This document shows positions 6,270 to 28,215 of a stretch of DNA of 35,880 nucleotides, in pieces. A program made the position numbers and the translations under genes. Below the pieces are notes generated by a model, which was not told the DNA's origin, did no database searches, and saw only the letters and a list, made by a program, of their open reading frames with translations. Within the stretch, counting starts at the first letter, position 1. Each line of letters starts with the position of its first letter. The DNA comes from a virus. The stretch lies in UHGV virus genome UHGV-0165226. One strand, 5' to 3'.

Positions 6270-7123
6270 GCACCATCCTGAAATGGGCGGGAAATAAAAC
6301 CGCCATTATGCCAGAACTGAAAAAATACCTTCCTGCTGGCCCGCGACTGGTTGAACCTTTCGCGGGTTCCTGTGCTGTGATGATGGAAACGGATTATCCC
6401 AGCTATCTGGTTGCGGATATTAATCCTGATTTAATCAACCTCTATAAAAAGGTTGCCGCTGATTGTGAATCGTTTATATCTCGCGCCAGAGTTTTATTTG
6501 AGATCGCAAACAGGGAGGTGGCTTATTACAACATAAGGCAGGAGTTTAACTGCTCAACTGAAATTACTGATTTCATGAAAGCGGTATATTTCCTGTATCT
6601 CAATCGTCACGGTTACCGTGGTTTATGTCGCTATAACAAGAGCGGGCATTTCAACATTCCCTACGGTAATTATAAAAATCCGTATTTCCCTGAAAAAGAA
6701 CTTCGCACATTTGCAGAAAAAGCCCAGCGAGCGACGTTTATCTGCGCCAGCTTTGATGAAACGCTGGCGATGTTGAAGGCGGGAGATGTGGTGTATTGCG
6801 ATCCGCCATATGACGGTACGTTTTCCGGCTATCACACTGATGGTTTCACTGAAGATGACCAGTATCACCTGGCATCCGTTCTTGAACATCGGTCATCAGA
6901 AGGACATCCGGTCATTGTTTCTAACAGTGACACATCCCTGATCCGTTCGCTGTATCGCAATTTTCCTCACCACTATATCAAGGTAAAACGCAGCATCGGT
7001 GTGGCAGCTGGCGAGGGTAAATCAGCAACAGAAATCATTGCTGTTTCCGGGCCGCGCTGCTGGATGGGATTTGATTATTCGCGTGGCGTGGATAGTTCTG
7101 CCGTGTACGGAGTACGTGCATGA
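6266..7123 (+). CDS. dam: DNA adenine methyltransferase (Dam-like, N6-A MTase)
   Basis: ATG at 6266 with GGAGG at 6255..6259; motif I FAGSCAV and motif IV DPPY (VYCDPPYDG); N-terminus [11 protein letters not shown] is Dam-like. Confidence 0.9.
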
Positions 7124-9534
7124 GTCATGCCGATATGAACAACTGCTGCGGCTTTAACGAGGCTGCCGCAGCATTCTCATGGAACAGCCCGAAAAAGGCC
7201 ATTAACCCTTATCTGGACCCGGCGGAAGTTGCGCCGGTTTCTACGCTTTCAAACCTGATCACTCTGTACGCTGCCGATAACGAGCAGGAACAGTTGCGCC
7301 GCGAGGCACTGAGTGATCAGGTCTGGGAGCGTTATTTCTTTAATGAATCACGTGATCCTGTCCAGCGCGAAATGGAGCAGGATAAGCTCATTAGCCGGGC
7401 AAAGCTGGCGCATGAGCAGCAGCGTTTTAATTCAGACATGGTCATTCTGGCGGACGTCAACGCCCAGCCTTCCCATATCAGCAAGCCGCTGATGCAACGT
7501 ATTGAATACTTCAGCAGCCTGGGCAGGCCAAAGGCTTATTCCCGCTATTTACGTGAGACGATTAAGCCATGTCTGGAACGACTGGAGCATGTACGCGACA
7601 GTCAGCTATCTGCATCTTTTCGCTTTATGGCAAGCCATGAAGGGCTGGACGGCCTGCTGATCCTGCCTGAAATGAGTCAGGATCAGGTGAAACGCCTGTC
7701 CACCCTGGTAGCTGCGCATATGAGTATGTGCCTTGATGCAGCTTGTGGTGATTTGTATGCCACCGATGACGTTAAGCCAGAAGAAATCCGCAAGACATGG
7801 GAAAAGGTGGCAGCGGAAACCCTGCGTCTGGATGTCATCCCACCTGCGTTTGAGCAACTCCGTCGGAAAAGAAACCGCCGTAAACCCGTGCCCTATGAAC
7901 TCATTCCGGGTTCGCTGGCGCGTATGTTGTGCGCCGACTGGTGGTATCGGAAATTATGGAAGATGCGTTGCGAATGTCGGGAAGAGCAGTTGCGCGCTGT
8001 TTGCCTGGTCAGCAAAAAAGCATCTCCTTATGTCAGCTATGAAGCCGTGATGCATAAACGTGAGCAGCGCCGTAAGTCGCTGGAGTTTTTCCGTTCTCAT
8101 GAACTGGTGAACGAAGACGGCGACACGCTGGACATGGAGGATGTGGTAAACGCCAGCAGCAGCAACCCTGCGCATCGCCGCAATGAGATGATGGCCTGTG
8201 TTAAAGGTCTGGAGCTTATCGCGGAAATGCGCGGTGACTGCGCCGTTTTCTACACTATCACCTGTCCGTCGCGTTTCCATTCCACGCTAAATAACGGCAG
8301 ACCAAACCCGACCTGGACAAACGCGACGGTAAGACAAAGCAGCGATTATCTGGTCGGTATGTTTGCTGCATTTCGTAAGGCGATGCACAAAGCCGGGTTG
8401 CGCTGGTATGGCGTGCGGGTGGCTGAGCCGCATCATGATGGCACAGTTCACTGGCACCTGTTGTGTTTCATGCGCAAAAAAGACCGCCGTGCCATCACTG
8501 CATTACTGCGTAAGTTTGCCATCCGTGAAGACCGCGAGGAGCTGGGCAATAACACTGGGCCGCGCTTTAAGTCTGAGTTGATTAACCCGCGCAAAGGAAC
8601 GCCGACAAGCTACATCGCGAAATATATCAGTAAGAACATTGACGGTCGTGGTCTGGCTGGCGAGATCAGCAAGGAAACGGGTAAATCTCTGCGTGATAAC
8701 GCTGAATACGTGAATGCCTGGGCGTCTCTGCATCGTGTTCAGCAATTCCGCTTCTTTGGTATTCCGGGGCGTCAGGCTTACCGTGAACTTCGCTTGCTGG
8801 CTGGTCAGGCGGCAAGGCAACAGGGTGACAAAAAAGCAGGTGCGCCGGTACTGAATAACCCGCGTCTTGATGCCATTCTGGCTGCTGCTGATGCTGGTTG
8901 TTTTGCCACCTACATCATGAAGCAGGGCGGCGTACTGGTTCCCCGTAAATATCACCTCATCAGAACCGCTTATGAAATCAACGAAGAGCCGACCGCCTAT
9001 GGCGATCACGGCATTCGTATTTATGGCATCTGGTCACCCATTGCAGAGGGCAAGATCTGCACTCATGCAGTGAAGTGGAAAATGGTTCGTAAAGCCGTTG
9101 ACGTTCAGGAGGCGGCAGCCGACCAGGGCGCTTGCGCCCCTTGGACTCGTGGCAATAACTGTCCCCTTGCTGAAAATTTGAACCAACAAGGGAAAGACAA
9201 ATCAGCTGATGGGGATACCAGAACGGAAATCACCCGCATGGATGACAAGGAATTGCACGATTACCTGCACAGTATGAGCAAAAAAGAGCGCCGGGAACTG
9301 GCAGCAAGGTTACGCCTGGTTAAACCGAAACGGCGTAAAGACTACAAACAGCGAATTACAGATCATCAGCGACAGCAGCTCGTCTATGAACTGAAGTCCA
9401 GAGGATTTGATGGCAGCGAGAAAGAGGTCGATTTACTCCTTCGCGGCGGCAGTATTCCGTCAGGAGCAGGCCTGCGTATCTTCTATCGGAACCAGCGTCT
9501 GAAGGAAGATGATAAGTGGCGGAACCTGTATTAA
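7120..9534 (+). CDS. A: Replication initiation endonuclease, P2 gpA-like (rolling-circle HUH nickase)
   Basis: 804 aa. HUH-type motif [10 protein letters not shown] and active-site tyrosine motif YIAKYISKN. Start overlaps the dam stop (ATGA). Confidence 0.9.
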
Positions 9535-10208: not shown

Positions 10209-10766
10209 TCACATAAACATCTGGATTTGCTCGTTTTTTAGTTGGTTGATTTTTTCGCGCAATCTGATCTTTTCATCAGCTTTTTCCAAAGAGGCTGGTG
10301 ACATGCAGTTAATCAAAGCGTCAAGGTGCTCTGGAGATTTGATAATAAAGAACTTTTTGTATTTATTAACAAAAACGACAGAGCATTTTTTACGTTTAAG
10401 AAGCTCAATCACGTTACTCAGAGTACCCGTGCTCTTCGTATCCCAAACCATTAATCCATAATCGGCTTCTTCTGCCATTTTGAGATCTTTCGCAGTGAAA
10501 AACGCGCGAGTGCCGGCTGCATGGCTAGTACTTACTACATGTACAGGCCATGAGCCAAGATTATTGCGCGGTTTTTCTGAGCTACTGAATACTGTGGCTT
10601 TTTTACATCCAAGTTCTAGCAATACGCGTTGAACAGATGAATCAACACCATTGGCATCACCAACTACAATACGAAAACGCGAGTTAACAATTTTTTTCAG
10701 ACGATCCACGATGAGTGTGTCAAGGTTTTTGATGGTTATTGAACCAGCAACAAATACCGTAGTCAT
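10209..10766 (-). CDS. SLOG/DprA-LOG-like Rossmann-fold protein (cargo operon, gene 2)
   Basis: ATG at 10766 with GGAG 6 nt upstream, 2 nt after the stop of the PRTase gene; about 185 aa. Core VFVAGS...IVVGDANGVDSSVQRV...ATVF resembles the glycine-rich nucleotide-binding loop of DprA/Smf/LOG (SLOG) proteins. AT-rich. Confidence 0.7.
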   Translation of the reverse strand: MTTVFVAGSITIKNLDTLIVDRLKKIVNSRFRIVVGDANGVDSSVQRVLLELGCKKATVFSSSEKPRNNLGSWPVHVVSTSHAAGTRAFFTAKDLKMAEEADYGLMVWDTKSTGTLSNVIELLKRKKCSVVFVNKYKKFFIIKSPEHLDALINCMSPASLEKADEKIRLREKINQLKNEQIQMFM

Positions 10767-10768
10767 CA

Positions 10769-11350
10769 CTATCTCCAAGTCAAAGCTGCAACATAAATGC
10801 TTCTAACCTTAGTATAATCGTTTAGCACAGCACAAGCAGCCTCCATAGATGCGCCTGTATGGTAGAGGTCGTCAATGATAAGGACATTCCAGTTGCCATT
10901 ATTCTCAATACTGTCATTAACAGAGAACGAATTACCCAGCGCCGTGATTTTCTCTTCTTTTGTATTCAGGTTCTTTAGCGAAGCCCCGCCGGGGGCTTTC
11001 AACAAGAGGTCATCGAAGCATGGTTTGCCAACTAGTTTGGCTAGTTCCTGAGCTATTTCGGTCACTGGCTGGCGTGCACGCTGATTAGATGCAGCCATTG
11101 GAACGATAAACCCGACATTGCTGAAATGAGGAAAGGCATGCTCTGCTAGGCATTGGGCTAAAGGCTTAACTTGTGACCAATCGTCACGGTATTTAAGCTG
11201 GAAAAGAGATTCGCCTACCTCAGTACGCTCAGTCTCAAACCGCATATGTCCCCACTCATCGTAACCAATGGGAATGCTGCGGATGCTGTGTTTATCCATC
11301 GCAAGACCTAATTCCCAATTTCCAACAATCTGTTTTATGTTGACTTTCAT
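10769..11350 (-). CDS. Phosphoribosyltransferase (PRTase)-like protein (cargo operon, gene 1)
   Basis: 193 aa, ATG at 11350. C-terminal NVLIIDDLYHTGASMEAA matches the type I PRTase PRPP-binding loop (hydrophobic run, two acidic residues, T-G-A-S). No N-terminal Cys4 zinc finger. Confidence 0.75.
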   Translation of the reverse strand: MKVNIKQIVGNWELGLAMDKHSIRSIPIGYDEWGHMRFETERTEVGESLFQLKYRDDWSQVKPLAQCLAEHAFPHFSNVGFIVPMAASNQRARQPVTEIAQELAKLVGKPCFDDLLLKAPGGASLKNLNTKEEKITALGNSFSVNDSIENNGNWNVLIIDDLYHTGASMEAACAVLNDYTKVRSIYVAALTWR

Positions 11351-11614
11351 GGCTCACCGTTTGCTGTGTAAAACACCAAAGATTACCTCTTGTTATATTT
11401 GGTGAAAGCGAAAGTTTCATTTTTTGCAGTGGAGATCAAATGTTACTCCGTGAACATTTTTAGCATGTGGCCTCGCTACACGGTTTGGCGTAACTACTGC
11501 ATGTCTATACTGCATGAATCCGCATGATCGTTTAAGGATCGCTCTAGTTGGGGCCTGCTAGGTATGGCGGGCTTTTGCTTATGTCATGCAGGTGCATGAA
11601 AACCACTATATAAA

Positions 11615-11645
11615 GCGGGCAGGCGTGGCGGGGATACGAGCGCGC
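11615..11645. other. Candidate cos (cohesive-end) site
   Basis: GGCGTGGCGGGGATACGAGC at 11622..11641 resembles the 19-nt cohesive ends of 186 (GGCGTGGCGGGGAAAGCAT) and P2 (GGCGAGGCGGGGAAAGCAC) as I recall them. Memory-based; not verified. Confidence 0.35.
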
Positions 11646-11717
11646 GCATTGATTTCAAAAGATGAAATCAAGTGGTACGATAAGTAGGATTACTACCAAT
11701 TCTCAAAGGGATGTCTC

Positions 11718-13415
11718 ATGCATAGAATTGTTAAAGCTCATCTTGATAACTTCGTGAAAAGTCACGGTATTGAAAATCATCAAGAGGACACGCAGTTCGA
11801 GCTATTTTGTAATAAAGCTTTGCTGTCTTCTCGTATAAGTATGGATTATGAAATTGACGATGTAACAACCGGGGCTGGTGATGATGGCATGGATGGTGTT
11901 GCCATCATAATTGATGAAGAATTGTGTATATCTTCTGAAGATGCTACTTCAATATTTTCCTCATTACGTAAAAATCATGATGTTGATATTGTTTTCATTC
12001 AATCAAAGCGTAGTGAGTCTTTTGATTTAGGTGATTTTTTAAAGTTTAAAGCTTCCGTTTTTAGATTTATAGAGGATTCTCCTTACTTATGTGTGGATGA
12101 AATTCAAAAAAATGCAAGGGAAGTTTTTGATGTCATAATAAAAAATGTACCTAAGATAAGAGGTGGGCGACCAACTTTTACTGCTAAATATGTTGCAACT
12201 GGTTTATATAAAAAACCTAAAGAGTTAGAGAATGCTCGGAAGTTATTTGCAAAAGAAATTGACGAGTTGGGATATTTCTGTAATGTTAGCGTTGAGTTTG
12301 TTGATCGTGATGAATTAACACGTACTTGGATTGATACTTATTCAGTTGTCAATGCTGAATTGCCATTATTTAGTAATGCACCACTTCCCAAAATTAATGG
12401 TATAGAAGAAGCTTATCTTGCTGTCGTTAAAGCAAAGGATTTTGTTGGTAATTTATTGATGACGGACGAGGGGTCTCTCCGTAATCATGTTTTTGTTGAG
12501 AACGTCCGGGCGTTCTTGGGAATTGATAATCCTGTTAACGCATCGATTGCTGAGACAATTAAAAATAAAGATGCCGCTTCACGATTTCCTGTTTTAAATA
12601 ATGGAATAACAATTGTTAGTCCGGATGTAAAACTTCAAGGGAGTATTTTACATCTAGAAAATTTTCAGATAGTTAATGGCTGTCAGACATCAAATGTGCT
12701 TTACGAATGCCGCGATTCCTTAGATGATACGATGATGGTTAACTTGAAAGTCGTAGAGACATTAAACGAAGATGTTTTTTCAGAATTGGTTCGAGCGACT
12801 AACAGTCAGACTAAGGTTGATGAGACTCAGTTCTATTCTCTTCGTCCAATAATAAAGAAAGTAGAAGCGTACTTTGATACTTATGAAGGGCAGGATGGTC
12901 GTTTATATTTAGAAAGACGTGAAAGACAATTTATCGGTAGAGATATACCTGCAGTTAGAGTATTTTCAGTTCATATGGCAGCTAAATGTGTAGCAGCTAT
13001 GTTCTTCCGTCGGCCAGATCTTTCATATAGATACCCTAAAAAAATGTATGAATTGTTGGCTGAGAAAATATTTTCTAATGATACCAAGGAGATTGTATTT
13101 TATTCAGCATGTTTAACATTATATAGATTACACTTACTTACTTCTAATGCTGATATTCCACAAAATATCAGGAAGTATAAATGGCATTTAATGGCGGTAG
13201 TTGGTGCTTTAATTGCCGGAAAGGATGTGCCTAATTTTGGCTCTAAGAAAATGGATGCGTATTGTAATAAAATCATCACTGAAATGACAAAGCATGGTGA
13301 TAAAATAAAAGCTACTTTCCAGAAGGCTGTTGATATTGTTTTGTCAATTGATGATATCACTGATGATAGAATGAAAAGGCAAGCTATTTTAGAGGAAATG
13401 CTTGCCAAGATTTAA
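11718..13415 (+). CDS. AIPR-family (abortive-infection phage-resistance-like) protein
   Basis: 565 aa, ATG at 11718. Central motif VLNNGITIV...FQIVNGCQTS matches the AIPR family signature (NG...QT). Very AT-rich. Confidence 0.75.
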   Translation: MHRIVKAHLDNFVKSHGIENHQEDTQFELFCNKALLSSRISMDYEIDDVTTGAGDDGMDGVAIIIDEELCISSEDATSIFSSLRKNHDVDIVFIQSKRSESFDLGDFLKFKASVFRFIEDSPYLCVDEIQKNAREVFDVIIKNVPKIRGGRPTFTAKYVATGLYKKPKELENARKLFAKEIDELGYFCNVSVEFVDRDELTRTWIDTYSVVNAELPLFSNAPLPKINGIEEAYLAVVKAKDFVGNLLMTDEGSLRNHVFVENVRAFLGIDNPVNASIAETIKNKDAASRFPVLNNGITIVSPDVKLQGSILHLENFQIVNGCQTSNVLYECRDSLDDTMMVNLKVVETLNEDVFSELVRATNSQTKVDETQFYSLRPIIKKVEAYFDTYEGQDGRLYLERRERQFIGRDIPAVRVFSVHMAAKCVAAMFFRRPDLSYRYPKKMYELLAEKIFSNDTKEIVFYSACLTLYRLHLLTSNADIPQNIRKYKWHLMAVVGALIAGKDVPNFGSKKMDAYCNKIITEMTKHGDKIKATFQKAVDIVLSIDDITDDRMKRQAILEEMLAKI

Positions 13416-13466: not shown

Positions 13467-13501
13467 AAAAAGAGTGCTTTTATTGTTAAGCACTCTTTTT
13501 T
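13467..13501. terminator. Bidirectional intrinsic terminator between the AIPR gene and portal gene Q
   Basis: Stem AGAGTGCTT (13471..13479) / AAGCACTCT (13488..13496), 8-nt loop, flanked by AAAA upstream and TTTTT downstream, so it works on either strand. Confidence 0.75.
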
Positions 13502-13502
13502 A

Positions 13503-14540
13503 TTAAGCTAACTCAAGGCTATATGTATTGAATTTAATAATGTCATCTTCTACCCACTCATTAATTTCTTTGATTCTTTCCTGTAAGGGGGTTAATTCGT
13601 TACGGACGAATACCTTGCTGGCTTTTTCAATATCGCCAAATCCACCAGTGTTTTGTGGAATAATGCCCATCATCTGCGGAGGAACTCGATGTGCTGCCAT
13701 CATGTCATCGCGACTGACATTTTTGATATTCAGAAACTCATCCTTCGCCGCGACTTCTGACAACGGGATGATCTGAAGCCCGTCCTTTTTGCCGTTAGGC
13801 GAGTACATAAACAAATTGCGGAAGTTGCCTGGACCTTTGGCACTTTTCATCGCGTTGCGGAGGTTGTTTACATCTTCCTGGTTTTGCGCGGCGTCGGTCA
13901 TGTACATGATGAAGCCTGCATGACTGCCGTTAATGTAATACTTCCGGCGGAACAGCGTGGCGGACTCGTTGAGCAGGGCTGACGGAATGACAGAAAGATA
14001 GCCGGGCAGGCCGTAGATTTCTTGATTAATATCCGGCTCCATCAGGTGAAAAATGCTGCCTTTCGTGAACTGATACGGCTGCGTGGTCATGCCGTATTGC
14101 ACAAACCAGTAGGTATCCAGGTCTAACCCGCGTCGGGTGTATTTTGCCAGCGCAGGCTCAAGGGCGATAACTTCACCGAATCGGTTCGTGCGTTTCTCCA
14201 GGTAGGCGTTACCAAATACCAGATAGTCCTGCACAAAACGCGAAAAAGCCTGCTGGCTGAGCAGCGGGTGGGGGATGTAGGTACTGGTCAGAATGTTGCA
14301 TTTCACCGCAATTGGTGAACTGTGATGCACGGCGGCGCGGAAGGTGCGCGCCAGTCCGTCAAAGCTTACTGGCGGCTCATACCAGCGATCTGTCTGTAAG
14401 CATTCCACATAGTCCAGCAGTTCGCGGCGGTCCATAACAGGAACGGGATCACCGAAGCTGAATGCTTCGGCTGTAGTTTGACTTTTATGCTGGATCTGGT
14501 TCGTCGACGCAGCGCGGTTCTTCTTACTCTTTCCCATCAA
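13503..14540 (-). CDS. Q: Portal protein (P2 gpQ)
   Basis: 345 aa, P2 gpQ size; conserved position opposite the terminase gene; 4-bp overlap with P. Confidence 0.92.
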   Translation of the reverse strand: MMGKSKKNRAASTNQIQHKSQTTAEAFSFGDPVPVMDRRELLDYVECLQTDRWYEPPVSFDGLARTFRAAVHHSSPIAVKCNILTSTYIPHPLLSQQAFSRFVQDYLVFGNAYLEKRTNRFGEVIALEPALAKYTRRGLDLDTYWFVQYGMTTQPYQFTKGSIFHLMEPDINQEIYGLPGYLSVIPSALLNESATLFRRKYYINGSHAGFIMYMTDAAQNQEDVNNLRNAMKSAKGPGNFRNLFMYSPNGKKDGLQIIPLSEVAAKDEFLNIKNVSRDDMMAAHRVPPQMMGIIPQNTGGFGDIEKASKVFVRNELTPLQERIKEINEWVEDDIIKFNTYSLELA

Positions 14541-16303
14541 AAAATCTCCACAATATTACTGGTATTGGCGGACTCGCCCTGCAGTGGTTCGTTAAACAGT
14601 GCGTGCATTGTTGCCCAGGCCAGATCGGCGTGGCTGGCTTCTTCGCTGCGGCTGGCTTCATAGGTTGGGCGGTTGCCACTGGCGGTGGTTGCGCGACGGA
14701 TTGCCATGAATGACTGCGCAATGTCGGTGTGCCCGGCGTCAAACTCCAGACGGCGGTGGCTGATAATGTCGTAGGCCTTGAGTACCAGGGCGTTTTTAAC
14801 GTTGGGGTTGTAGACAAACTCCCGGACGGCAGGAAAGAACGCTTTCACGTTCTCGTAAACCCCGTGACCAACGCCGGTTGAGTCGATACCGATATAGGTC
14901 ACGTTGTACTGTTCGGTAAGTTTTTTGATGGCGTCAGCCTGGGCGCGGAAGTCCATCCCGCGCCACTGGTGACGCTCAAGAATGCGGAACTTACCACCCG
15001 GCACGGCTGGCGGTGCCACCACCACGCATCCAGCGCTGTCGCCGTTTTGCGTACCTTTTGCCGGGTCATAACCGATCCACACTTCGCGCCAGCCAAACGG
15101 GCGCAGCGCCAGTGCATGAAAGTCGGTCCAGACTTCCCAACTGTCCACCATGCACGCCTGCAGCTCGCTGAGCGGAAACACGGACGCGAGATCGTCCACA
15201 AACTCGCACATCAGCAGGTTCTGGTATTCGTCCGGGCTGTACTCCATGCGTAGCTGGTCGAGGTCGAACAGGTTACAGCCGCCGCGCACCGCATCTTCCA
15301 CGGTGACTATCTGGCGGTATTGCCCGTCTGCGCACAGCAGGCCGGGGGCCAGATTGCTGTGGGACAGGTCGATGTCCACCTTATCGGCTTTGTTGCGCCC
15401 ACGGTTGAACAGCGCACCGGACCAGAACGGATAAGCACTGTGTGTCAGACTGGATGGCGTGGAAAAATAGGTTTGTCGCCATTTTTTGTGAATAGCCATA
15501 CCGGAAGCCACTTTGCGCAGCTCCTGGAATTTCGGTATCCAGAAATATTCATCCAGATACAGGTTGCCGTGGTAACTCTGGGCCGTGCGGGCATTGGTGC
15601 CGAGGAAGTAAAGCGTGGCCCCGTTAGGAAGCACCATCGGATCGCCTTTCAGCTCCACCTCCACTTCTTTGGCAAAGTCGATGATGTACTGTTTAAAGAC
15701 GTGGGCCTGAGCCTTGCTGGCAGAAAGGAAAATCTGGTTACGCCCGGTCAGCAGGGCGTCAATCAGGGCTTCACGGGCAAAGTAAAAGGTCGCGCCGATC
15801 TGGCGTGACTTCAGCAGGTTGCGGATGCGGTTGGTTTTTCCGGCTTCCCACCAGTGGCGCTGGTAGTTGAACATGGAGGAATGGAAGATTTCTTCCAGTT
15901 TCTCAATCTGTTCATCGGTGAAAACATTCTTTTCCGGCTGACGACGTGGGCCTTTGTTGCGGTTGGCAACGTTAGGGTTTAAGTCGGCTTCGTTGCCGCC
16001 ATTGTTAAACTTGCCGATCCGCGCGTGGCGCTCAGACTGGCGTGCCAGCAGGTCAATTTCTTTGAAATCTTTCCCTTCTTTGTGCTCCTTCATAATGAGC
16101 TGGCAGTAGCGTGCGGCGGTGGTGAGCTGCATCTGATCCAGCGGCCCATAGTCACCCCACTTGTCGCGTTTTTTCCAGCTGTGAACGGTTGCAACTTTCT
16201 CGCCCAGCATTTCAGCAATGCGGGCGACGCGGTATCCCTGAAAGTACAGCAGCATGGCCTGCCGACGGGGATCGAGATCTGCGGGTGTCAGTGTGGTGTT
16301 CAT
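14537..16303 (-). CDS. P: Terminase large (ATPase) subunit (P2 gpP)
   Basis: 588 aa (P2 gpP is about 590); divergent from the O-N-M-L capsid operon as in P2. Confidence 0.92.
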   Translation of the reverse strand: MNTTLTPADLDPRRQAMLLYFQGYRVARIAEMLGEKVATVHSWKKRDKWGDYGPLDQMQLTTAARYCQLIMKEHKEGKDFKEIDLLARQSERHARIGKFNNGGNEADLNPNVANRNKGPRRQPEKNVFTDEQIEKLEEIFHSSMFNYQRHWWEAGKTNRIRNLLKSRQIGATFYFAREALIDALLTGRNQIFLSASKAQAHVFKQYIIDFAKEVEVELKGDPMVLPNGATLYFLGTNARTAQSYHGNLYLDEYFWIPKFQELRKVASGMAIHKKWRQTYFSTPSSLTHSAYPFWSGALFNRGRNKADKVDIDLSHSNLAPGLLCADGQYRQIVTVEDAVRGGCNLFDLDQLRMEYSPDEYQNLLMCEFVDDLASVFPLSELQACMVDSWEVWTDFHALALRPFGWREVWIGYDPAKGTQNGDSAGCVVVAPPAVPGGKFRILERHQWRGMDFRAQADAIKKLTEQYNVTYIGIDSTGVGHGVYENVKAFFPAVREFVYNPNVKNALVLKAYDIISHRRLEFDAGHTDIAQSFMAIRRATTASGNRPTYEASRSEEASHADLAWATMHALFNEPLQGESANTSNIVEIF

Positions 16304-21814: not shown

Positions 21815-22256
21815 ACTGCAGAAGGTGGACGACTGGCTGAGTGCCTTGCTGGCGAATCTGGAACCAGCCACGAGAAGCCGCATGATGCGCCAGCTGGCGC
21901 AGGAACTGCGCCGGACACAGCAGCAGAATATCAGGATGCAGCGCAATCCAGATGGCAGCAGTTATGAACCGCGCAGGGTAACAGCACGCAGCAAGAAGGG
22001 GCGCATCAAACGTCAGATGTTTGCAAAGCTGCGCACGACAAAATACCTGAAAACTGCCGCCAGCGCCGACTCTGCCAGTGTACAGTTTGAAGGCAAGCTG
22101 CAGCGCATTGCCCGCGTTCACCATTACGGCCTGCGAGATCGCGTCAGTCGTAAGGGACCGGAGGTGCGTTATGCAGAGCGGCAGTTGTTAGGTTATAACG
22201 ATAAAATTTTGTCATTATCGCAAGACGTATTATTACGTGCTTTGGTTGATAGCTAA
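21807..22256 (+). CDS. S: Tail completion/virion morphogenesis protein (P2 gpS)
   Basis: 149 aa (P2 gpS is about 150), GTG start overlapping the R stop. Confidence 0.8.
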   Translation: MAELQKVDDWLSALLANLEPATRSRMMRQLAQELRRTQQQNIRMQRNPDGSSYEPRRVTARSKKGRIKRQMFAKLRTTKYLKTAASADSASVQFEGKLQRIARVHHYGLRDRVSRKGPEVRYAERQLLGYNDKILSLSQDVLLRALVDS

Positions 22257-22261
22257 GCTAA

Positions 22262-23131
22262 TCAAAACAATCTCAATAAATTATGATCAATCGTAAGCAA
22301 GTTGGAGATAACAAGTTTGTTATTATCAATATTGAATTTTTCTAATATTGCTGCTACAGCACTGGGGTAAGGTTGTGAAGCATATGGAGAAATGTATATT
22401 TTTTCGATTAGCTTTACAGGATCTGTTTTTATTCTTATCCCTTTGGGAGTATAGTTTTCGATGTCGCTATTAATAATTTTTGGTGTTATGGATAAACGTA
22501 CTTCATTTTCATGTGAAAAAGCTTTTCGTTTTAAAAAAGGAACCATTCTTCCGTTCACGACGCAATCTTCAGATGTTAGTTTTTCATCGAAATAATCAAT
22601 GTATTTTACTTCACTAATAGAGATAATCTCTTCAGATTGAAGTGAATCTATCAAGCGTGATATTGATGTTTGAATTGCTATTCCTTTGTTAGCATCTGAA
22701 TACAAACGCCACATTCCTTCTGACTCATGTTCATTTTGATGCCAACAATTCACTGTGACGGAGTTTAAAATCTTAAAATAGATAGATTCTATTTTTGGTA
22801 ATTGTGTATCCATCATTGTTTGCAACTTGGTGATTTCTGTTTCGGCTTTTTCATTAGAGATTCTGCCTAATAGTTCGTTTTCCCTGATACGCTCTACGGT
22901 ATCATTGAAATATGATTGTATATCATTAAACTTACTTTTGACGATGCTTGCCCACGCATTTAAGGCAACCTTAGGTAATAACCCCTCATATGGATCGCTA
23001 TTGCTGTAAGAACTAAGAGGAGAAAAATATAGCTCTTCTCTGGATAATATATCGATGAATTTATCAAGAGACATATAGCGCCACAGTTTTGTTTCAGGTT
23101 TTAAATTTGGACTAATTTGGAATTTATTCAT
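22262..23131 (-). CDS. Cargo protein with DUF2971-like N-terminal region, at the P2 orf30 site between S and V
   Basis: 289 aa on the strand opposite to the late operons; very AT-rich. N-terminus KLWRYMSLDKFIDILSREELYFSPLSSYSNSDPYEG resembles the DUF2971 signature as I remember it. Confidence 0.7.
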   Translation of the reverse strand: MNKFQISPNLKPETKLWRYMSLDKFIDILSREELYFSPLSSYSNSDPYEGLLPKVALNAWASIVKSKFNDIQSYFNDTVERIRENELLGRISNEKAETEITKLQTMMDTQLPKIESIYFKILNSVTVNCWHQNEHESEGMWRLYSDANKGIAIQTSISRLIDSLQSEEIISISEVKYIDYFDEKLTSEDCVVNGRMVPFLKRKAFSHENEVRLSITPKIINSDIENYTPKGIRIKTDPVKLIEKIYISPYASQPYPSAVAAILEKFNIDNNKLVISNLLTIDHNLLRLF

Positions 23132-25640: not shown

Positions 25641-27058
25641 GCACAAAATTTTATACCCTGCTGACGGATATTGGTGCGGCGAAACTTGCCAGCGCCGCCG
25701 CGCTCGGTGTGCCTTTAAAAATTACCCATATGGCGGTAGGCGATGGCGGCGGAACATTGCCAACGCCGGACGCAAAGCAGACAGCATTAGTAAATGAGAA
25801 ACGCCGGGCTGCGCTGAATATGCTGTACATCGACCCGCAGAACAGCAGCCAGATTATTGCTGAACAGGTGATCCCTGAAAACGAGGGCGGTTGGTGGATA
25901 CGTGAAGTGGGCCTGTTTGATGAGTCCGGGGCATTGATTGCCGTGGGCAACTGCCCGGAAAGCTATAAGCCGCAACTGGCTGAAGGCAGCGGGCGTACCC
26001 AGACCGTGCGTATGGTGTTGATTACCAGCAGCACGGACAATATCACCCTGAAAATCGACCCTGCCGTAGTGCTGGCAACCCGCAAGTATGTGGATGACAA
26101 GGCACTGGAGCTGAAGGTGTACGTGGATGACCTGATGGCAAAACATCTTGCCGCACCGGACCCGCATTCACAGTATGCACCCAAAGAAAGTCCGACGTTT
26201 ACCGGAACCCCCAAAGCGCCAACGCCAGCGGCGGGAAATAACACCACGCGGATTGCGACCACTGAGTTTGTTCAGGCCGCTATTACCGCTCTGATTAACG
26301 GTGCGCCAGCCACGCTGGACACACTGAAAGAAATTGCCGCAGCCATTAACAATGACCCGAAATTCAGCACCACCATTAACAATGCGCTGGCACTGAAAGC
26401 TCCGCTGTCGAGTCCCGCACTTACCGGAACGCCAACAGCACCTACTGCGGCACAGTCGGTCAACAATACACAGATTGCCACCACGGCTTTTGTGAAATCA
26501 GCAATTGCGGCAATGGTGGGTTCTGCCCCTGCGGCACTGGATACACTGAATGAACTGGCGGCGGCGCTGGGGAATGACCCTAACTTTTCAACAACAGTGC
26601 TTAATGCACTGGCAGGCAAACAACCGCTGGACAATACGCTGACTAATTTGAGTGGAAAGGATGTTGCCGGTCTTCTCGCATACCTTGGTTTGGGAGAAGC
26701 GGCAAAACGGGACGTGGGAACAGGGGAAAATCAGATACCGGATATGGTTTCATTTAGTGGTGTGAGGGATTTTTATGGAAAACAACTTTTGCCAGGAGGG
26801 TTGATACTCCAGTGGCTGACGATTCCATCAAGTGCAGCAGTCAAAGCTGTAACACTGGATAATGGTAATTATCAGCTGTCAGGCTATAAATGGCCCCAGT
26901 CATTTGGTGTCCTGTTTGCTGTGTTTGCCACAAAAGTTTCTGGCTCGACTAACGAAGCATACGCAATCTCAGTTAATCGTCACTCTACCGATGTAATTGT
27001 CACCTGGAATGCCCGTAAGGCTGATGATGTCCATATTTTAGGAATTGGGAAATTATGA
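25637..27058 (+). CDS. H: Tail fibre protein (P2 gpH-like); the C-terminal portion from about 26686 lies inside the invertible segment
   Basis: 473 aa; conserved gpH N-terminus ([18 protein letters not shown]...), then variable repeats. The reading frame continues across the left crossover site. Confidence 0.9.
26685..26709. repeat. Left 25-bp inverted repeat and crossover site of the invertible tail-fibre segment
   Basis: TTGGTTTGGGAGAAGCGGCAAAACG; its exact reverse complement is at 28193..28217. The outer edge resembles a Hin/Gin hix/gix-like site. Confidence 0.8.
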
Positions 27059-27474
27059 AAATGAAATGGTCCCCATCTGTTCAGGGATTTTTCTCTGAAA
27101 ACAACAGCGATATTCCCGATGATGCTTTCGATATTGAAGATGCTCTTTATTATGAACTTATGAATGGTCAGAGTACGGGGAAAATTATTATCAATAGCCC
27201 GGATAACTACCCTGTACTTACTGAATATCCAGCGAAGACACATGAGCAGGAAATAGCTGAAGCGGAGGGAATGAAAAATATACTTATTGAACAGGCCAAC
27301 GATTATATGAACAGTAAACAATGGCCTGGTAAAGCGGCTATTGGCCGGCTGAAAGGTGAGGAACTGGCACAATATAATTTGTGGCTGGATTACCTAGACG
27401 CACTGGAACTGGTCGATACTTCCGGTGCGCCAGATATTGAATGGCCTACACCTCCGGTAACTCAGGCCAGCTAA
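27055..27474 (+). CDS. Tail fibre assembly protein (Tfa, gpG-like), current-orientation copy
   Basis: 139 aa directly after H; C-terminus ...[15 protein letters not shown] is a conserved Tfa motif and resembles the C-terminus of the opposite-strand copy. Confidence 0.85.
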
Positions 27475-27841
27475 TCTCAGGAGCCGTCGAAGTGTCGACG
27501 GCTTTTACTTCTTTTTTGTAGTCCATCCAGGCAGATAGTTTTTCTTTATCTGTACTGCTGATATCACCAAGCATTAATTCCACCCGCCAGTCAGCTGTGA
27601 CATTATCGGCATGAGCAAGTAACTGCATTCGCTGATTTTCAGCACGTGCGACATAATCAATCGCCGGAGATTTCAGTACCGGTAAACCATTTTCATCTGA
27701 CGTGATTAATTTCCCCCCTTCCTGCTGTCCGGCAATTAATTCATTGTATAAGTCTGTACTTATCTCAACAATGTCAGCAGGCATGTCGCTGTTTATACCA
27801 TCAAAGAAAAAACCATTAGTCGATTTTGAGAAATAAATCAT
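27446..27841 (-). CDS. Alternative tail fibre assembly protein (Tfa'), expressed after inversion
   Basis: ATG at 27841 (minus); about 131 aa; C-terminus ...[17 protein letters not shown]; its 3' end overlaps the 3' end of tfa by 29 bp. Confidence 0.75.
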   Translation of the reverse strand: MIYFSKSTNGFFFDGINSDMPADIVEISTDLYNELIAGQQEGGKLITSDENGLPVLKSPAIDYVARAENQRMQLLAHADNVTADWRVELMLGDISSTDKEKLSAWMDYKKEVKAVDTSTAPEISWPELPEV

Positions 27842-27849
27842 AGATATAC

Positions 27850-28215
27850 CTATACACCGATTGCTACCCAAAAACAGGACCTTTCATATTTGACAATTTC
27901 TCCCTGAGATATACCGCCAACAATTATATAGAACTGTGATTTGCTGATATCAGAACAGTTCGCTATGCCCATTGCAGATATACCAGCCACCGACGTTGTA
28001 TGTGGCACAGCCAACAGCGCAAGTGAACGATTTGGGAATGTTACCGGGTAAGTCACCGTATAGTTTGATGCTCCACTGACAATACCCCACTGAATAATCA
28101 GACCTGAAGGGAGTTTTTGAAAACCCGTTGATGAAAGTGAACTGGCAAACGCCGCCATATCCGGAATTTGGTTTTGCTCGTTACCCACATTTCGTTTTGC
28201 CGCTTCTCCCAAACC
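27850..28215 (-). CDS. Alternative tail-fibre C-terminal exon (H' variable part), no own start
   Basis: Minus-strand ORF encoding [20 protein letters not shown]..., which parallels [20 protein letters not shown] in H. It is in frame across the right inverted repeat, so inversion would fuse it to the constant part of H. Confidence 0.7.
   Translation of the reverse strand, partial: GLGEAAKRNVGNEQNQIPDMAAFASSLSSTGFQKLPSGLIIQWGIVSGASNYTVTYPVTFPNRSLALLAVPHTTSVAGISAMGIANCSDISKSQFYIIVGGISQGEIVKYERSCFWVAIGV

Follow-up and report, generated by a model that had tools for sequence, protein, structure and literature searches.

The window analysed here, a stretch of viral DNA of 35,880 nt (UHGV virus genome UHGV-0165226), raises the question of what an AT-rich reading frame is doing between the predicted cos site and the portal gene of a phage: whether it is cargo or phage backbone, to which family its product belongs, how this product would act, and whether the gene is intact. 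Taken together, our data make it probable that the locus is a self-contained moron with its own ribosome-binding site and terminator, which sits in the cos-to-portal slot and encodes a single-protein candidate defence enzyme of the AbiU/AIPR type. Neither the type of gene nor the type of location is new, as the family, the slot and the occurrence of AIPR/AbiU genes in P2/P4 hotspots have all been published.

Host element and predicted cos site

The content of the window is that of a P2-family (Fels-2-like) prophage of Escherichia coli. The segment 11500..13560 (2,061 queried bases) was 100% identical to the chromosome of E. coli 30EVA1, in which the prophage adjoins rcdA; the matching locus in NZ_CP138423.1, from 1358834 onwards, corresponds to the window from 11662 onwards. 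The original prediction described an extremely AT-rich gene of 565 codons, and a frame of this length with an ATG start was indeed found (Table 1), with 34.6% GC against 50-56% in the neighbouring phage genes (GC 0.346 and GC3 0.253 for the abiU-like gene; GC 0.498 for Q, 0.563 for P and 0.528 for A). The gene is foreign by its base composition.

Table 1. Coordinates of the abiU-like locus and its surroundings in the window (strand: +, -, or. where none applies).
Feature	Position	Strand	Remarks
Replication gene A	7120..9534	+	
SLOG/DprA-like + PRTase pair, left of cos	10209..11350	-	cargo, context
Conserved region left of cos cut	11500..11621	.	candidate terminase recognition region, GGCCTGC..GGCGGGC hairpin
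Predicted cos 19-mer GGCGTGGCGGGGATACGAG	11622..11640	.	predicted cohesive end, by homology
CGCGCGC, last conserved bases	11641..11647	.	left junction of cargo slot directly after
Putative weak promoter	11653..11681	+	TTTCAA, 17 nt, extended -10 TGgTACGAT; inferred by eye
Shine-Dalgarno AAGGGA	11706..11711	+	6 nt 5' of ATG; conserved in Fels-2 and EC444
abiU-like gene (AIPR family)	11718..13415	+	ATG start, 565 aa, intact
Predicted N-terminal PD-(D/E)xK nuclease domain	11718..12341	+	aa 1-208; E28, D59, Q95-x-K97
Predicted AIPR core, ParB/sulfiredoxin fold	12483..12812	+	~aa 256-365; motifs NVR, NNGIT, NGCQT
Predicted C-terminal alpha-helical domain	12813..13412	+	aa 366-565; invariant E399-R400-R401
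Intrinsic terminator hairpin	13467..13501	.	symmetric, between converging abiU-like gene and Q
Portal gene Q	13503..14540	-	context; 3' end = right junction of slot
Terminase P	14537..16303	-	
Scaffold O	from 16446		

The conserved region that adjoins the cos cut on the left belongs to the phage backbone rather than to the cargo: 11500..11621 was matched in 1,249 E. coli genomes at 80-100% identity, and the sequence to its right does not match them. The cos site itself is predicted by homology to two experimentally defined cos sites, those of P2 and 186. The 19-mer GGCGTGGCGGGGATACGAG is identical at 15/19 positions to the annotated cos of 186, GGCGTGGCGGGGAAAGCAT (the cos of P2 being GGCGAGGCGGGGAAAGCAC), and the window, P2 and 186 have in common both the GTGCAT.AAAACC...AAGCGGGC motif on the left of cos and the (T/C)GCGCGC context on its right. 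Together with the following CGCGCG(C), the 19-mer is identical in 10 related prophages (Fels-2 and nine E. coli prophages), while the sampled relatives all diverge from the first base after CGCGCG(C); in all of them the right-hand slot begins 7 bp past the cos 19-mer. From the start of cos to the portal gene there are 187 nt in P2 and 196 nt in 186, against 1,862 nt from the end of cos to the Q stop in the window, where the gap is filled by the AbiU cassette. The gene had been placed between cos and Q, an order borne out by the predicted cos (11622..11640), the gene (11718..13415) and the Q stop (13503). It had further been suggested that the gene would consequently be the first DNA to enter on injection. 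For a gene acting from the resident prophage, injection order is not needed to explain its position, and last-in-first-out has been questioned even for lambda in a 2023 paper.

Leader and terminator of the cassette

Upstream of the gene, a weak extended -10 candidate, TGgTACGAT (11673..11681), was picked out by eye, and a consensus promoter scan of the region reported no usable sigma-70 promoter. The GATGAAATCAAGTGGTACGATAAG stretch in the leader is conserved with Fels-2 and EC444, carriers of the same gene. Right of cos, a perfect 8-bp inverted repeat, TTGATTTC-aaaagat-GAAATCAA at 11649..11671, overlaps the putative promoter; it may be due to chance, as neither Fels-2 nor EC444 conserves its left arm.

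On the other side of the gene, the hairpin AAAAAGAGTGCTT-ttattgtt-AAGCACTCTTTTTT (13467..13501) folds at -18.6 kcal/mol (z = -4.06), a stability reached by none of the 200 shuffled sequences; the consensus terminator scan missed it. Considering the A-run on its 5' side, the T-run on its 3' side and its distance of 2 nt from the Q stop codon (13503), it is plausibly a bidirectional terminator, and the earlier description of it as such, shared with Q, was a fair one. Other-cargo relatives have different hairpins at this position, so the hairpin apparently travels with the cargo. The moron features of the cassette are therefore its GC content (0.346 vs ~0.5-0.56) and its own terminator, the promoter being a weak candidate found by eye.

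Assignment to the AbiU/AIPR family

The protein matched the Pfam family AIPR (PF10592) over aa 260-514 with a score of 150 bits (cut-off 25; E 1.5e-43), so that the AIPR signature read earlier from the letters alone is now backed by a profile; the PADLOC search added the AbiU model, matched over its full length (aa 2-563 aligned with profile positions 3-532 out of 537, E 4.4e-112). "Abortive" is here a family name, the window protein being assigned to the family by its sequence.

A 589-aa AIPR protein, which reaches 590 bits on the AbiU model, is encoded on the Lactococcus cremoris plasmid pC42 and is followed by a 341-aa ORF; these lengths are those published for AbiU1 and AbiU2. AbiU was originally described by Dai et al. 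(2001). The window protein resembles AbiU of L. lactis (AbiU1/AbiUi) in its full-length match to the AbiU model, in its length class (565 vs 589 aa), in the succession of a predicted nuclease domain and an AIPR core and in being a single-gene system, but it is only 24% identical to the lactococcal-type protein of pC42 (E 4e-26, window protein aa 21-465), and its gene lies in an enterobacterial P2-family prophage, whereas AbiU is carried by a lactococcal plasmid. The gene for AbiU2 (HEPN) is absent after the window gene, the next gene being portal Q on the opposite strand. Apparently, AbiU2 is not required, because AbiUi alone gives resistance in Lactococcus, with an efficiency of plating of 10^-1 to 10^-2 and delayed phage transcription; the same review gives the mechanism of AbiU as unknown (PMC13064643).

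The gene had also been regarded as a stand-alone one, and this view was upheld: there is no partner gene at the locus, and the orthologues found in Halioxenophilus, a Bacteroidales MAG and Brenneria (64-89% identity) lie in non-phage chromosomal contexts with no conserved neighbour, which supports a single-gene system. A two-gene system was rejected on the strand of Q and the missing conserved neighbour. Membership in the Mza system was rejected as well. MzaE has the AIPR core in common with the window protein, and sub-threshold matches were obtained with PADLOC (35 bits) and NCBIfam (42 bits); however, the latter value falls far short of the 1050 bits required for an equivalog, and the neighbourhood consists of phage genes, with no mzaABCD among them.

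Predicted domain architecture

The AlphaFold2 model, built from a 101-sequence alignment (mean pLDDT 90.7, pTM 0.84), shows a predicted architecture of a FokI/Mrr-like PD-(D/E)xK nuclease, a ParB/sulfiredoxin-fold AIPR core and a helical domain. The modelled nuclease domain is similar to those of MspJI and AspBHI, two modification-dependent enzymes, and a second group of matches in a fold search comprised ParB-like PadC, sulfiredoxin and BrxU. When residues 205-440 were modelled alone (pLDDT 88.6), the best eleven matches all belonged to the ParB/sulfiredoxin superfamily: PadC (6.2), sulfiredoxins (5.5 and 4.9), pNOB8 ParB (5.2), BrxU (5.2), KorB (4.8), SspE (4.6) and a DndI-type DUF262 protein (4.5), and further Atu1540, SbnI and a free serine kinase. 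The invariant NGCQT motif lies in the model at a strand-to-helix turn, presumably the place of DGQQR in DUF262 and of GCHR in sulfiredoxin. For the C-terminal domain, the pLDDT of the blocks was mostly 82-97 (64 in one block), and no informative fold match was obtained with the AlphaFold2 model.

A Foldseek comparison of the full model with the PDB gave nothing significant (best E 0.058), SspE and PadC appearing as weak hints. Sequence and profile searches of the PDB returned no matches, and Pfam returned nothing for the first 252 residues with the limit set at E 10. When 40 AIPR-core sequences were scanned with Pfam at the same limit, neither ParB nor DUF262 was seen; the 101-sequence profile, aligned by hhalign with one DUF262 protein, reached a probability of 0.2, and the window protein had no Pfam match to DUF262 (DGQQR) or DUF1524 (HNH-like). 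The likeness of the modelled core to ParB and DUF262 would thus be one of fold only, none being detectable at the sequence level. GmrSD, BrxU and SspE, which combine a DUF262 ParB-like NTPase with a DUF1524 nuclease, differ from the window protein in the reversed order of the domains, in the HNH-like type of the nuclease (PD-(D/E)xK in the window protein) and in the DUF262 sequence signature, which is absent from the window protein. A ParB-superfamily core fused to another nuclease domain, as predicted for the window protein, is a feature described by Makarova (2013). AbiU-1 was assigned to the PD-(D/E)XK superfamily (PMC13099982, 2026) and an AbiU model was superposed on FokI in a 2026 review (PMC13064643); the ParB-plus-nuclease architecture of AbiU/AIPR is already published.

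Distribution of the gene and occupancy of the cos-to-portal slot

The abiU-like gene is accessory, not core. It was found in 7/5,426 complete E. coli genomes, about 1,250 of which carry the same cos region, and relatives have other cargo at the same position, so that the possibility, raised along with the original prediction, of a core gene conserved throughout the lineage did not materialize. One of the seven E. coli copies is identical to that of the window and six have ~84.5% nucleotide identity, one of these six being interrupted by IS1. In E. coli HN257 (NZ_CP139803.1), the homologous AIPR gene is split by IS1B into two aligned pieces spanning 2.7 kb.

The protein of the Fels-2 prophage of Salmonella Typhimurium LT2 (STM2723.1, annotated only as "hypothetical protein") is 93.5% identical to that of the window and is encoded at the same place; the discovery value of the present gene is small, given such a copy in a long-known prophage. 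Like the E. coli EC444 gene (WP_087890510; ~84.5% nucleotide identity), the Fels-2 gene lies between an identical cos 19-mer and Q and has the same 5' leader, and both loci differ from the window in the 3' flank, the terminator hairpin and the cargo across cos.

Eight other sampled relatives with an identical cos have different cargo, with 1.1-2.5 kb between cos and Q. The slot of sister prophages is filled by a retron Ec67-type reverse transcriptase, an AAA ATPase, a DUF262 protein, an ImmA/IrrE protease with a partner, or one of several hypothetical gene sets. With a synthetic query in which the sequence left of cos was joined to the 3' end of Q, both parts were found within ~775 nt of each other in only 58 of the 1,259 matching genomes, a count that is approximate in view of the variability of the Q 3' end itself; in this lineage, the slot is therefore usually occupied. 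Similarity to the relatives resumes only ~17-160 nt inside the 3' end of Q. This variability places the right recombination junction inside the portal C-terminus, so that the tail of the portal protein varies with the cargo. The last ~17-160 nt of the portal gene (13503..~13660) and the hairpin that follows differ among prophages with different cargo.

Earlier accounts of the slot between cos and Q, cited in PMC5694545, are those of Dodd and Egan (1996) for retrons of 186-related prophages and of Nakayama (1999) for phiCTX. The toxin gene ctx of phiCTX, which has a promoter and terminators of its own, is located between cosL and Q. Like ctx and the retrons Ec67/Ec86 of 186-related prophages, the cassette of the window is foreign low-GC DNA with its own terminator that replaces the ~170-nt spacer from cos to the portal-gene terminator, and it differs from them in carrying a predicted AbiU-type nuclease in place of a retron or a toxin. 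Rousset (2022) delimited a defence hotspot "adjacent to the cos site", the gpA-gpQ region, and Table S5A of that work includes AIPR-containing arrangements, among them WP_087890510 of EC444.

Proposed function and alternative explanations

We propose that the resident prophage expresses the protein, which would shield the lysogen from unrelated phages. Its ParB-like core may be a nucleotide- or DNA-sensing switch, as are the ParB-like domains of GmrSD, BrxU and SspE, and would license the N-terminal nuclease to nick or cut DNA. Such nuclease action would fit the phenotype of lactococcal AbiU, the sole one on record for the family, with delayed phage transcription and a modest drop in plating. 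The DNA cut might be that of the phage, which would amount to direct immunity, or that of the cell too, which would amount to abortive infection.

It is possible, though on balance doubtful, that the protein is a direct enzyme similar to type IV restriction and not an abortive one: its ParB-like domain would sense a feature of the incoming DNA (a modification, an end or a structure), the nuclease would cut this DNA only and the cell would survive. The predicted architecture would be equally compatible with such a mode. The closest folds of the core include the ParB-like domains of BrxU (GmrSD family), SspE and a DndI-type DUF262 protein, and the nuclease domain resembles modification-dependent MspJI and AspBHI; the DUF262 protein in the same slot of a sister prophage and the mildness of the published AbiU phenotype point in the same direction. 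Against this stand the lack of a DUF262 or DUF1524 profile match and the fact that both the family name and the delayed transcription fit either mode.

The candidate defence function proposed above also has to be weighed against a role in the service of the phage itself, either as a ParB-like, cos-linked accessory of packaging or partition or as a selfish nuclease driving its own spread. The ParB fold, the vicinity of cos and the partition genes carried by about a quarter of P2-like hotspots would agree with it, but almost none of the relatives that have this cos carry the gene, its orthologues of 64-89% identity are found in the non-phage chromosomal contexts mentioned above, no ParA or centromere-like partner accompanies it and its best full-length match is to a defence-family model, which makes this explanation very improbable.

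Integrity of the reading frame

In 30EVA1, RefSeq/PGAP annotates the gene as "AIPR family protein, frameshifted" (locus 14163..15916, equivalent to window 11662..13415). The upstream ATG at 11662 lies 56 nt before 11718 and is out of frame; in EC444 and Fels-2 the distance is 54 nt, which keeps the frame, and in EC444 this accounts for the 583 aa of the E. coli reference protein (WP_087890510). All of the 15 aligned homologues, which are 61-93% identical to the window protein, 565-570 aa long and derived from Enterobacterales, Halioxenophilus, Endozoicomonas and delta-proteobacterial and Bacteroidales MAGs, start with MHRI.K.HL at the Met equivalent to 11718. The Fels-2 gene is annotated with the short start, and all invariant residues of the 101-sequence alignment (down to 25% identity) are present in the window protein. 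As these lines of evidence agree, the ATG at 11718 is the true start, and the extension by 18 codons is an over-long start call in the reference protein, given the family-wide start at the equivalent Met. The chance that the gene is a dead, frameshifted pseudogene, as the PGAP flag and the out-of-frame upstream ATG would have it, is thus practically negligible in the face of a start site kept by homologues from several phyla; the flag is an annotation artefact, and the RefSeq pseudogene call is corrected here.

The lengths of the 565-566-aa AbiU clade are nearly invariant, with 61-67% identity across Enterobacterales, Halioxenophilus, Endozoicomonas, delta-proteobacterial and Bacteroidales genomes and MAGs, which points to strong constraint and wide horizontal transfer. 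Being so strongly conserved, the clade offers a convenient entry point in E. coli to this defence family.

Relation to the P4 satellite hotspot

AbiU is among the systems found in both P2 and P4 (de Sousa 2026, PMC13586616). An AIPR gene cloned from the P4 hotspot was outside the seven systems reported as protective (Rousset 2022), a result that is not transferable to the window protein, because the P4 protein is only distantly related to it. The P4 hotspot starts at the equivalent place, the inserts of P4 following cos and TGCGCG; conservation stops 6-7 bp beyond the 19-nt overhang of cos both in Fels-2/186-type phages and in P4, with side and orientation identical. With this common start of the slot in phages and P4 satellites, cos could anchor the exchange of cargo. 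In a 2026 survey, the mechanism of cassette exchange between P2 and P4 is stated as unresolved. We found no near-identical AbiU common to a helper-type phage and a P4 satellite, and for this reason we offer only tentatively, and consider unlikely, the idea that the shared cos, or the end cut there by terminase, serves as a recombination anchor by which AbiU and other defence cassettes pass between helper and satellite.

Two slots separated by cos

Left of cos, the SLOG/DprA-like and PRTase pair gave weak PADLOC matches to PsyrA and ShosT/PsyrT and a weak ComF match. A DprA + PRTase pair from the P2 hotspot, similar to it in domain composition, was validated against T7 and lambda (Rousset 2022). 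The SLOG protein encoded at 10209..11350 is WP_061356426 and differs from the commoner WP_024219117. Prophages with the WP_024219116/7 pair left of cos carry, on its right side, either an AAA ATPase or a set of three hypothetical genes, and in all, the SLOG/DprA-like and PRTase pair was seen with three different right-hand cargos and AbiU with three different left-hand cargos, including those of Fels-2 and EC444. The abiU-like gene had been called a second, independent cargo gene of the hotspot, which agrees with the occurrence of both the pair and AbiU with other partners across cos. This shows that the gpA-gpQ "hotspot" of the lineage is in fact two slots, split by cos and assorting independently, and the A-to-Q region is recast accordingly. 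In EC444, the left-hand slot contains an ORF of 203 aa (L003 5351..5962) annotated as "valyl-tRNA synthetase", probably a misannotation, because this label is implausible for an ORF of such size and place. Further low-GC dips (0.34-0.44) were seen at ~22000..23000 and ~27000..28000, in the late/tail region of the prophage, and might be other cargo or variable tail-fibre segments.
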